From an uncultured Alphaproteobacteria bacterium (GTDB lineage Bacteria > Pseudomonadota > Alphaproteobacteria > RF32 > CAG-239), in the NCBI GenBank assembly GCA_934273635.1, contig CAKQSV010000008.1:30-64029 (forward strand): DNA of 64,000 nt, written 5' to 3'. The translations under genes and the position numbers were made by a program. Below the pieces are notes generated by a model. The model saw nothing but the letters and a program-made list of their open reading frames with translations. It was not told where the DNA came from and ran no database searches. Positions 61,768-62,760 of the stretch are shown in pieces (the stretch's first letter is position 1; each line of letters opens with the position of its first letter).

Positions 61768-61848
61768 GCCCCCATCATACTTGTTATTTTTTCACTTGTG
61801 TAGCTAGATGTACACGGCGTTCAAAAATAGCAGCGTAGCATGGGGGCT
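61768..61848. repeat. Palindromic repeat element, variant A (terminal arms agcccccat/atgggggct around a conserved core with tgtacac)
   Basis: Same core as the elements at 4253-4330 and 61880-61959, but with different, self-complementary terminal arms. Confidence 0.8.
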
Positions 61849-61879
61849 TATCGTATTTTAAATGGTTAAGATATGCTAA

Positions 61880-61959
61880 AGGGTCGTCATACTGGTTGTT
61901 TTTCTCCTTGTGTACTAAATTGTACACGTCGTCGAAAAATAACGTCGTAGCACGACCCT
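61880..61959. repeat. Palindromic repeat element, variant B (arms agggtcgt/acgaccct)
   Basis: Core ...catactggttgtttttctccttgtgtactaaattgtacacgtcgtcgaaaaataacgtcgtagca... Confidence 0.8.
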
Positions 61960-61988
61960 TTTTCGCGTCTTAAGGGGTTGATGTGCGC

Positions 61989-62022
61989 GGCGTTCAAAAA
62001 TGACAGCGTAGCATGGGGGCTT
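61989..62022. repeat. Partial (right-half) copy of the variant A element
   Basis: ggcgttcaaaaatgacagcgtagcatgggggctt. Confidence 0.7.
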
Positions 62023-62052
62023 ATCGTATTTTAAATGGTTAAGATATGCTAA

Positions 62053-62132
62053 AGGGTCGTCATACTAGTTGTTTTTCTCCTTGTGTACTAAATTGTACAC
62101 GTCGTCGAAAAATAACGTCGTAGCACGACCCT
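62053..62132. repeat. Second copy of the variant B element (tandem ~174-bp duplication of 61849-62022)
   Basis: Near-identical to 61880-61959, including the spacer atcgtattttaaatggttaagatatgctaa. Confidence 0.8.
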
Positions 62133-62159
62133 TTTTCGTGTTTTAAAGCTAAGTCTGAA

Positions 62160-62760
62160 ACGCCATTGAGAGTTCGTTTCACGAACAAAGCAATCCAGTA
62201 CCTCCTCTCTAAATTTTTAGAGAGGAGGTGGCAGCGATAGCTGCCGGAGGTGAGTTTAAACTTCCCTCTCTAAATTTTTAGAACGGCCGAAAACAACAGT
62301 GCTTTGATGCACTGTTGTTGAGGAGACGCAATGAGACTTACTTTTGTGAGTGAGAGTAATCGAAACGATACAAAAGTTTTAGTCGGAATTGGGAAAGCGA
62401 GCTTGCGAGCTAGGGTGAGTTTATAGTTGGGGAAGAGCTTTTAATTAAAACTCCAAACATAACTTTAAACTCACCAGATTGCTAAGCGCAAATGCTATCG
62501 CATTTACTGAGCAATCTTGCCTCTCTAAAAATTCAAAGAGGCAGGGTAAGGATTCTATGTTCGCTGTTAGCTCCTGTCCTCTTAAGAAATCTGTCTTCCC
62601 TAAAAATTTAAGGAAGAATCCTTCTTTCTCTAAAAATTCAAAGAGGCAGGATACGTTTCTTTCCCAACGTCATCACGAGCCCGCCCTGCGGGCGTGGCGA
62701 TCCAAGTGTAAAGTAGCTATACCATGAATCTTGTATGATAAAAGAGGTAGCGGAAAAAGA
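62160..62760. repeat. Cluster of short hairpin repeats of a second family (conserved loop ctaaaaatt(t/c)a with variable self-complementary stems) plus other palindromes; no credible CDS
   Basis: cctcctctctaaatttttagagaggagg (62210), aacaacagtgc-tttgat-gcactgttgtt (62293), tgcctct-ctaaaaattcaa-agaggca (62518), tcttcc-ctaaaaatttaa-ggaaga (62596). Segment gcgggcgtggcgatccaagtgtaaagtag is shared with 20350-20378. Confidence 0.7.

Follow-up and report, generated by a model that had tools for sequence, protein, structure and literature searches.

The gap that follows tuf in a 64,000-nt stretch of DNA from an uncultured alphaproteobacterium (contig CAKQSV010000008.1; the whole stretch is called the window) is non-coding, and it is a patchwork of at least four small families of hairpin repeats. 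We consider it probable that this island is a repeat mosaic that has grown in the 3′ flank of tuf, and that it combines a terminator-like array of hairpins of about 106 nt (family 1) with a recombining patchwork of repetitive extragenic palindromes (REPs), H and G hairpins and RS-like modules. The family-1 hairpin with its conserved cap is a previously undescribed, lineage-specific element, which is absent from Rfam. The analysis covered the window and the flanks of a few loci from related contigs (labelled L001, L002 and so on).

Positions 61755-62146, immediately after tuf, are 3.5 copies of the family-1 hairpin. A second array lies behind ppdK. The copies in the window are as follows.

61755-61860, + strand: family-1 copy A, 7 nt past the tuf stop codon, with the outer stems TAAAATACG / AAAGCCCCCAT (covariance model R1, 120 bits; minimum free energy −45.9 kcal/mol, z −8.5).
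61866-61973, + strand: family-1 copy B, with the terminator-like outer stem AAAGGGTCGT...ACGACCCTTTTT and a T run (R1, 112 bits; minimum free energy −42.7 kcal/mol, z −8.0).
61980-62033, + strand: A′, which repeats the right half of hairpin A (matched by nhmmer over model positions 54-107 only) and opens the second 173-nt unit.
62039-62146, + strand: family-1 copy B′, a duplicate of B (96-98% identical to B; R1, 114 bits).
4241-4580, + strand: second family-1 array, which starts 10 nt past the ppdK stop codon.

An earlier reading of the sequence alone (the original prediction) had described two palindromic variants, A and B, in a 174-bp tandem duplication. Both variants are present, with folds of −43 to −46 kcal/mol and z of about −8. 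The duplication was also found (61807-62146, 2.0 copies, 95-96% identity); its period is 173, not 174. An assembly artefact was ruled out for this duplication because it was seen in independent assemblies (L005 and L006), and a diverged form was detected in L003 and L008. One junction of the duplication lies at the apex of hairpin A. The ppdK array contains two full family-1 hairpins with a right-half copy after each, and its period is 172. The internal partial copies of family 1 are right halves without exception.

Seven further copies of family 1 were found in alphaproteobacterial metagenome-assembled genomes (MAGs) and on metagenome contigs by a search with a pattern from the right half of the hairpin (four loci in genomes and three in metagenomes). 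The alignment comprised 17 distinct copies from at least five MAG lineages. From the base to the tip, the hairpin consists of an outer stem (S1), a conserved 2x2 loop, an A-tract with a GC-rich stem (S2), an asymmetric loop, a 9-bp stem (GTTATTTTT/AAAAATAAC), an internal loop and the apex (GTGTAC-loop-GTACAC). The asymmetric loop reads TCATAC on the left and CGTAGCA on the right, and 16 of the 17 loop positions were constant in all 17 copies. The conserved core of about 64 nt is strand-asymmetric: CATAC-GTTATTTTT-..GTGTAC-loop-GTACAC..-AAAAATAAC-CGTAGCA. Outside it there are two more 2x2 internal loops that are conserved, and a GTAGCTA centre is common to the tuf copies across species.

S1 and S2 vary by locus and remain complementary, so that an A-tract and GC-rich stem face their complement and a T-tract. 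In the alignment, 96.1% of the cells were paired, and 24 of the 35 pairs had changed on both sides. This pairing was reached in 0 of 500 shuffles, and slid controls were 39-54% paired. Model R1 scored 97-120 bits on the + (gene) strand versus 31-47 bits on the − strand. Moreover, G·U cells were more frequent than A·C cells (26 versus 7), counted over copies that are not independent of each other.

Family-1 copies begin 0-12 nt past the stop codons of tuf, ppdK, rplA, rplY, a yebC-like gene and a secreted-protein gene, and all of them are co-oriented with the gene. At the related loci, where the gene names come from our reading of the translations, the hosts are tuf (L014), rplA (L013 and L015), rplY (L011 and L017), the yebC-like gene upstream of ruvC (L016) and the secreted-protein gene (L012). 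Copies of the B and C types show the anatomy of an intrinsic terminator (AAAGGGYYGT...ACRRCCCTTTTT) just 3′ of the gene and in the same orientation. The ordinary terminators of the window are plain A-tract/stem/T-tract hairpins. Because these have the design of the family-1 outer stem, the family-1 element looks like an ordinary terminator elaborated with a conserved cap. From the sequences, we infer that family 1 is a putative lineage-specific elaborated terminator or 3′-end hairpin.

In the favoured reading, the family-1 hairpins would be transcribed with tuf and would act as the terminator and as a 3′-end protecting structure of a very highly expressed mRNA. The array would have grown by palindrome-stimulated tandem duplication, since the tip of hairpin A is the site of one of the junctions. 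Homologous recombination and gene conversion, among dispersed copies and between the two tuf loci of the clade (described below), would keep and reshuffle the array without any linked transposase.

Several points weigh against this reading. The loci L011-L017 were found by the right-half pattern, so the conservation of that half is partly by construction. The U-tract of copy A is weak, and the long hairpins were missed by a simple terminator scan, the limits of which (loop of at most 8 nt and at most 20 pairs) exclude such hairpins. Covariation in a palindrome can also come from template switching within the palindrome, with no selection on an RNA. In the present data, co-orientation with genes is inseparable from co-orientation with replication, and the roles of family 1 in termination and mRNA stabilisation are predicted from its anatomy.

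A rival reading is an origin from non-autonomous mobile DNA, in which REP/REPIN-like elements or elements like miniature inverted-repeat transposable elements (MITEs) were moved in trans by a transposase encoded elsewhere, the family-1 core invaded the loops of terminators, and the island is an insertion graveyard with no host function. Such an origin would explain a conserved core within locus-specific terminator-like stems. It would also suit the hairpin after tuf in L003, which has kept the same outer stem and carries a different subtype of the core, in the manner of a cassette. It also agrees with a family-1 copy number of 1 to 3.5 among strains and loci, with the view that CGTC-tagged REPs, which occur in the island as well, are possible miniature transposons (PMC3733652), and with the fact that in other species accessory genes have settled in the tuf 3′ flank, an integrase/Prim-Pol element among them (L145). 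However, neither target-site duplications nor conserved terminal inverted repeats were found for these elements, and their termini are variable. Transposase, integrase and RAYT domains were not detected among the approximately 60 open reading frames (ORFs) of the window, and CGTC-tagged REPs have no known dedicated transposase (PMC3733652). In addition, the family-1 elements are kept at orthologous positions (tuf, rplA and rplY) across species, which together with the common GTAGCTA centre looks like vertical inheritance. The two conserved 2x2 loops outside the core argue that the whole 106 nt is one designed structure. Thus, we regard mobile DNA as an unlikely explanation of the island, and retain the reading of a terminator-like array that grew in the tuf 3′ flank.

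A weak relative of family 1 was observed elsewhere in the window. A 125-nt long hairpin (18907-19035; z −9.1) lies 6 nt past the stop codon of the ORF at 16817-18901, has a CGTAC-loop-GTACG apex and scored 28 bits with R1. Its right arm TAAACGCATTATCCGAGGTTTT (19011-19032) recurs exactly 1.28 kb downstream, at 20292-20313. A gene with leucine-rich-repeat (LRR)-like repeats (19170-20204) and its terminator are therefore placed between 22-nt direct repeats, as if the gene had been inserted or captured at the hairpin. The ORF at 16817-18901 (694 aa; no Pfam or NCBIfam match) contains an internal 57-nt tandem repeat (17184-17338, 2.7 copies, 87% matches).

Capped hairpins are also present in related species. 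In species with 97-98% identical EF-Tu, shorter hairpins with variable stems were found at the 3′ ends of tuf, fusA and ppdK. Their cap, TTCATGTAC-N5-GTACACTAG(G/A)ATTTT, is related to the apex of family 1. Within 265 kb of clade sequence, the apex motif ATGTAC-N-GTACAC was confined to gene-end hairpins, and the asymmetric form of the motif occurred exclusively on the gene strand. A scan of viral contigs gave 0 hits for the family-1 pattern. The apex motif is essentially missing from viral contigs; its single hit there reads as a chance match in an apparent potassium-channel ORF of an AT-rich contig.

We offer one further reading only tentatively and consider it doubtful: the hairpins of about 106 nt and the related ones of sister species with ATGTAC-loop-GTACAC might be more than terminators or selfish palindromes and form one clade-wide, strand-specific cis-element. 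This element would label highly expressed genes (tuf, fusA, rplA, rplY and ppdK) at their 3′ ends for a dedicated trans-acting factor. The factor could be an RNA-binding protein or a nuclease that acts on the 3′ untranslated region, or it could work at the DNA level, as a topoisomerase would on a hairpin that has been extruded. It would recognise the element by the asymmetric internal loops, which are conserved.

Two observations concern the surroundings of tuf in these species. In L146 (3727-3990), the spacer between fusA and tuf is 286 nt long (121 nt in the window) and contains two copies of a repeat of about 130 nt, the first of which bears a capped hairpin, AAAAAATTCATGTAC...GTACACTAAAATTTTTT. 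Thus, capped hairpins are also located inside the str operon in that species. In the sister species (L142-L144 and L148-L150), the 3′ flank of either tuf copy is occupied by varying small uncharacterised genes. The flank in L145 (5606-9191) carries a tyrosine integrase and a Prim-Pol/DUF3987 gene, and L150 has accessory genes that separate tuf from the rpsJ operon. In this clade, insertions seem to have entered repeatedly at the 3′ end of tuf.

The remainder of the island, 62147-62760, folds as a row of stable hairpins from several families (z −3 to −6). Its parts, together with the region that follows it and a related composite elsewhere in the window, are listed below.

62160-62198, + strand: degenerate CGTC-type REP, ACGCCATTGAGAG-TTCGTTTCACGAA-CAAAGCAATCCAG, with the head CGCC (alignment and regular-expression census).
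62200-62229, no strand assigned: H hairpin 1, a perfect palindrome with 14-bp arms, ACCTCCTCTCTAAA/TTTAGAGAGGAGGT.
62230-62245, no strand assigned: small hairpin GGCAGC-GATA-GCTGCC, read from the sequence and paired in the fold.
62249-62263, + strand: solo left arm of the G palindrome, GGTGAGTTTAAACTT, which forms a long-range inverted repeat with 62461-62475.
62265-62287, no strand assigned: H hairpin 2, with a degenerate right arm.
62292-62319, no strand assigned: cassette hairpin AACAACAGTGC-TTTGAT-GCACTGTTGTT.
62320-62413, + strand: RS-like module GACGCAATGAGACTT...TTAGTCGGAATTGG.
62414-62475, no strand assigned: G hairpin GGTGAGTTTATAGTT...AACTTTAAACTCACC, an imperfect 62-nt palindrome.
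62476-62517, no strand assigned: hairpin AGATTGCT...AGCAATCT, from the fold.
62518-62543, no strand assigned: H hairpin 3, TGCCTCTCTAAAAATTCAAAGAGGCA, the 24-nt core of which is repeated exactly at 62627-62650.
62594-62617, no strand assigned: H hairpin 4, TCTTCC-CTAAAAATTTAAG-GAAGA.
62621-62650, + strand: H unit 5, a direct repeat of H3.
62668-62713, + strand: CGTC-type REP CGTCATCACGAG-CCCGCCCTGCGGG-CGTGGCGATCC with a AAGTGTAAAG tail; the same composite is found at 20327-20374.
62786-62857, + strand: promoter-like and leader region of a 215-aa ORF (ORF215), outside the repeat array.
20327-20436, + strand: composite in which a CGTC-type REP, a linker, an H hairpin and GTAAGGATTCCAATGAC are combined; it lies 3′ of the LRR-like gene.

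The CTAAAAATTT hairpins constitute the H family (CTAAAAATT-type). They are built from a pyrimidine run, TAAA-WW-TTTA and a purine run, and their stems covary across the copies. The H motif YYCTAAAWWTTYARRG has six sites in the window (eight strand matches), whereas 0 were expected; the island contains five of these sites, and the sixth is 20391-20406. Stems that vary and still pair, as had been claimed for these hairpins, were found at 62200-62229, 62518-62543 and 62594-62617. The claim did not hold at 62265-62287, where the right arm is degenerate, or at 62621-62650, where the left arm is recombinant. In the scan of viral contigs, an H hairpin was found in one stretch. The H hairpins appear lineage-specific.

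The small palindromes at 62230-62245 and 62292-62319 had been noticed beforehand and are present. The long-range inverted repeat is real as well (93% complementary), at coordinates that differ by about 7 nt from those first given. Several parts of the mosaic take other forms at related loci. The degenerate unit at 62160 is intact in L004, L007 and L010 (CGTCATTGCGAG...CGAAGCAATCC). At the position of the cassette hairpin, L001, L003, L007 and L010 have an unrelated hairpin, GCCAAAC...GTTTGGC. The homologue of the RS-like module in L003 and L001 lies within a 136-nt expanded CGTC unit. CGAAAC/GUC words in this module prompted a check for a ribozyme (hammerhead or other), which was rejected: the module has no CUGANGA core and gave no Rfam hit.

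The two hairpin families of the original prediction are thus both real, and a third one had gone unrecognised: the segment gcgggcgtggc.atccaag belongs to a CGTC-tagged REP. The reported recurrence of composite segments near 20340-20430 was found at 20349-20374 (96%) and 20383-20423 (88%). The gene beside it does encode 21-aa LRR-like repeats; its description as an LRR gene is qualified by the lack of a Pfam hit, a weak internalin-J hit being the only match.

The CGTC-tagged REP superfamily (Di Nocera et al. 2013) includes dRS3 of Neisseria and RPE-4 and RPE-6 of Rickettsia, predominates in alphaproteobacteria, and forms clusters in Neisseria and Wolbachia; its members are regarded as DNA that is probably selfish or of miniature mobile elements and that may also have roles as RNA (PMC3733652). 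The described unit has an unpaired CGTC tag (with the variants TGTC and CCTC), a stem of 8-9 bp that opens with two A-T pairs, a loop of 4-5 nt and a CCA tail (PMC3733652). The units analyzed here follow the formula (C/T)GTC-ATTGCGAG-(variable 4-6-bp hairpin)-CGAAGCAAT-CC(AG), at 62668-62703, 20327-20364 and, in degenerate form, 62160-62198. A CGTC or TGTC head precedes ATTGC/ATCAC in 23 of the 23 listed units (17 distinct units when near-identical loci are collapsed; window and L001-L010). Their tail is CCAG or CCAA in the window and the loci, which fits CCA. The stem has AT...AT ends and comprises 5 bp, a 3x3 internal loop and an inner stem of 4-6 bp; it is interrupted and exceeds the described stem in length, and the unit is 33-36 nt long in total. 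In a related species, a canonical unit with a 9-bp stem was found (L020, 9509-9537). The window contains three CGTC-type units, and the 1-kb arrays of L001 and L002 contain five to six each. By the head, the AT-initiated stem and the CCA tail, we assign the CGTC units of the island to the superfamily of Neisseria dRS3.

In IMG/VR, the flanks of the unit with variable inner hairpins gave at least 151 matches in at least 120 stretches (L022-L141) with a GC content of 31-72%. Thus, the CGTC-type unit is ubiquitous and not special to this genome. The IMG/VR unit, which is very frequent on these environmental contigs, reads GTCATTGCGAG-(variable hairpin)-GAAGCAATCC; it is preceded by C/T and followed by AG or CC, and its flanks are near-identical across very different hosts. 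To our knowledge, no enzyme that mobilises this unit has been described.

The order and content of the modules differ between strains. L003 is the orthologous locus: its flanking genes are 98-99% identical, and its gap is 939 nt long versus 1110 nt in the window. It has other modules downstream of an ACGTCAT head, is without the 105 nt that separate the two identical H units (H3 and H5), and carries a 100-nt module inserted within a CGTC unit. Its tuf hairpin also differs in the core, within the same outer stem. Genomes of the clade contain tuf twice, and both copies are on one contig in L142/L143 and in L149/L150. At the second tuf locus (L001, L002, L004 and L007), the order is SIS-domain gene, tuf, array and type IV pilin. 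These loci share window positions 61865-62645, with the order kept and 80-97% identity; their gaps are 871-1056 nt long and show module swaps. Thus, the sequence 3′ of the second tuf contains a counterpart to about 0.9 kb of the island. In L142/L143, the tract shared between the tuf loci is about 110 nt only. Among near-identical strains, modules have been swapped, duplicated and deleted, and the breakpoints are at the repeat units themselves.

A second array of about 1 kb, with five to six CGTC units, was observed past the type IV pilin gene (Bundlin/PilS domains) in L001 (8836-9917) and L002 (8698-9822). Thus, the pilin gene in these loci is bracketed by arrays. Another pilin of that type is located in the window at 25408-26016, without arrays.

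These arrangements raise the question of a recombination-promoting device like the Neisseria intergenic mosaic elements (NIMEs), in which the CGTC units would be recombinase sites that drive the exchange of adjacent surface or accessory genes (ORF215, the pilin gene and the LRR-like gene). The CGTC units fall within the dRS3 superfamily. Arrays stand on both sides of the pilin gene (L001 and L002); the LRR-like gene is flanked by arrays too, and ORF215 is preceded by one. In addition, the arrays are dynamic at syntenic positions, like NIMEs (PMC1797815). However, the flanked genes do not look hypervariable. Between strains, the DNA of the pilin gene is 97-98% identical, which is similar to its flanks, and ORF215 is 97.2% identical versus 98.6-99.2% for its neighbours; NIME-like hypervariability of the genes next to arrays was therefore not seen in this small sample of two to three strains. 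Nor was a recombinase found. A dedicated device of this kind is quite improbable in our judgement. The favoured reading, in which recombination among repeats reshuffles a mosaic behind tuf, was retained.

The island was also analyzed for genes and known RNAs. The gap (61748-62857) is the longest in the window, the next longest being 459 nt, and it has no credible ORF, so the description of the island as gene-free and repeat-dense was borne out. The sole ORF (62479-62727, 82 aa) consists of repeat units (SKNSKRQ twice) and had no Pfam hit, and the coding reading was rejected. An independent gene caller placed no gene in the L005 stretch (99.7% identical) or in the homologous gap of L003. A phage or plasmid origin was likewise rejected, as the island had no blastn match in collections of phages and plasmids. 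Over the whole window, Rfam at gathering score detected tRNA-Gly alone, and the island matches no Rfam 15 family; with E up to 10, five sub-threshold hits were obtained in the island, which is the chance level. ARAGORN found the tRNA-Gly and nothing further. The original prediction had reckoned with the possibilities that the repeats have no more copies in the genome or that they are a known RNA family. Further copies exist, and no Rfam family matches.

At 189-270, part of the 3′ end of tRNA-Gly(CCC) is repeated in inverted orientation, directly beside the tRNA itself (245-318, minus strand). This partial copy forms a 39-nt inverted repeat that is 85% complementary, and it may be an integration-site remnant.

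It can also be supposed that the island encodes independent small regulatory RNAs (sRNAs), and that the repeat families are paralogous sRNA genes. The row of stable hairpins (z −3 to −6) is compatible with this idea. Furthermore, hairpin positions are retained with unrelated sequences across strains, and terminator-like hairpins are in excess (8 found versus 1.7 expected). In contrast, promoter-like sites are not enriched (7 versus 4.3 ± 1.9 expected), and relaxing the Rfam search to E up to 10 gave no family match for the island. Strains that are 98% identical elsewhere freely lose, exchange and duplicate the modules, which is unexpected for functional sRNA genes. In rhizobia, 56% of the candidate sRNA loci of one predictor lay in repeat-containing intergenic regions, and the screens filtered out regions of this kind (PMC2573895). 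Independent sRNA genes are therefore a very unlikely explanation. As for the three natures that had been proposed for the island (a nursery of sRNAs, protein-binding sites or decayed mobile DNA), what we found are dispersed, structured palindromic repeats that are recombinationally dynamic; A and B are gene-end hairpins and not specific to the island.

The window is a piece of the chromosome. The gene order at the locus is rpsL, rpsG, fusA (58360-60435), tuf (60557-61747), the 1110-nt gap, ORF215 and dxs. Identical EF-Tu proteins were found on contigs from Hadza and other human-gut assemblies. The island had been placed between tuf and dxs; its actual right neighbour is ORF215 (62858-63505), which matches no family and separates the gap from dxs, the start of which is at 63669. 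About 75 nt 5′ of ORF215 are approximately 85% conserved relative to L144 (5590-5680), with the motifs TTGCAATTTTTGTCTA...TATTATTAATTT.TAAA..TATAATTATGG. In L144, a homologue of ORF215 occupies the equivalent slot, and its protein is 46% identical. Because of this upstream conservation across species, 62786-62857 was treated as a promoter or leader and not as part of the array. The conserved 5′ stretch suggests a promoter or a regulatory leader of a fast-evolving gene (ORF215).

Mosaic arrays of the dRS3 superfamily, once described as specific to Neisseria, thus occur in an abundant uncultured alphaproteobacterial lineage of the human gut. With 17 copies, strong covariation and strict placement at gene ends, the new structured element is a candidate for RNA and repeat libraries. 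Metagenome assemblies break at repeats of this kind (tuf contigs of the clade are often just 1-3 kb long), and the repeats yield spurious predictions of ORFs and sRNAs. If it is true that the capped hairpin has a dedicated partner, the element would provide a handle on gene-end processing in an organism that has not yet been grown.

The best classification of the island is an intergenic mosaic of palindromic repeats, like the bacterial interspersed mosaic elements (BIMEs), the NIMEs and the rhizobial intergenic mosaic elements (RIMEs) (PMC1797815, PMC2573895, PMC3733652). Its CGTC-type units resemble the described CGTC-tagged REPs in the stem opened and closed by AT, the location downstream of genes, the alphaproteobacterial host and the clustering, as in Neisseria and Wolbachia. 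They differ in that a 5-bp outer stem (ATTGC/GCAAT), a 3x3 loop (GAG/GAA) and a variable inner hairpin take the place of the continuous stem of 8-9 bp, and in the 136-nt expanded form with an RS-like insert in the loop.

Like NIMEs, the arrays are non-coding and on the kilobase scale, and short inverted repeats of the dRS3 superfamily are interleaved with modules of 50-150 nt (PMC1797815). They keep syntenic positions while the number and order of modules vary by strain, and they adjoin pilin and other accessory genes (PMC1797815). NIME arrays were stated to be absent outside Neisseria (PMC1797815), whereas the host here is an alphaproteobacterium. The unit is ATTGC...GCAAT here and ATTCCC-N8-GGGAAT in NIMEs: instead of dRS3 ATTCCCNNNNNNNNGGGAAT flanking RS elements, we found ATTGCGAG-N13-CGAAGCAAT, and only some modules are bracketed. 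The arrays here are also less regular, with several other hairpin families mixed in, and no elevated divergence of the flanking genes was seen (two to three strains).

With the REPs and BIMEs of Escherichia coli and the RIMEs, Sm-repeats and AB,C palindromes of rhizobia, the island shares structured, often mosaic palindromes that are intergenic or in 3′ untranslated regions, the placement of arrays after operons with high expression, and proposed roles in termination, mRNA 3′-end protection and DNA topology. In contrast to REPs and BIMEs, the family-1 unit is much longer (about 106 nt), it lacks a GTAG tag on the 5′ side of a short palindrome, and the approximately 60 ORFs of the window gave no sign of an associated RAYT; the GTAG of family 1 lies 3′ of the inner palindrome, and the opposite arm is CATAC. 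MITEs and REPs have conserved ends, whereas family 1 has a conserved core and variable outer stems, with variable termini and no flanking direct repeats seen.

Terminators of Neisseria and Pasteurellaceae contain conserved words that are lineage-wide, such as the DNA uptake sequences. On such terminators, see Kingsford et al. 2007, a reference given in PMC12306157. Family 1 resembles the uptake-sequence terminators in that a lineage-specific conserved sequence is placed within terminator hairpins just after genes. The two differ in the part that is conserved: the conserved word of family 1 is the apex or core of the hairpin, not the stem.

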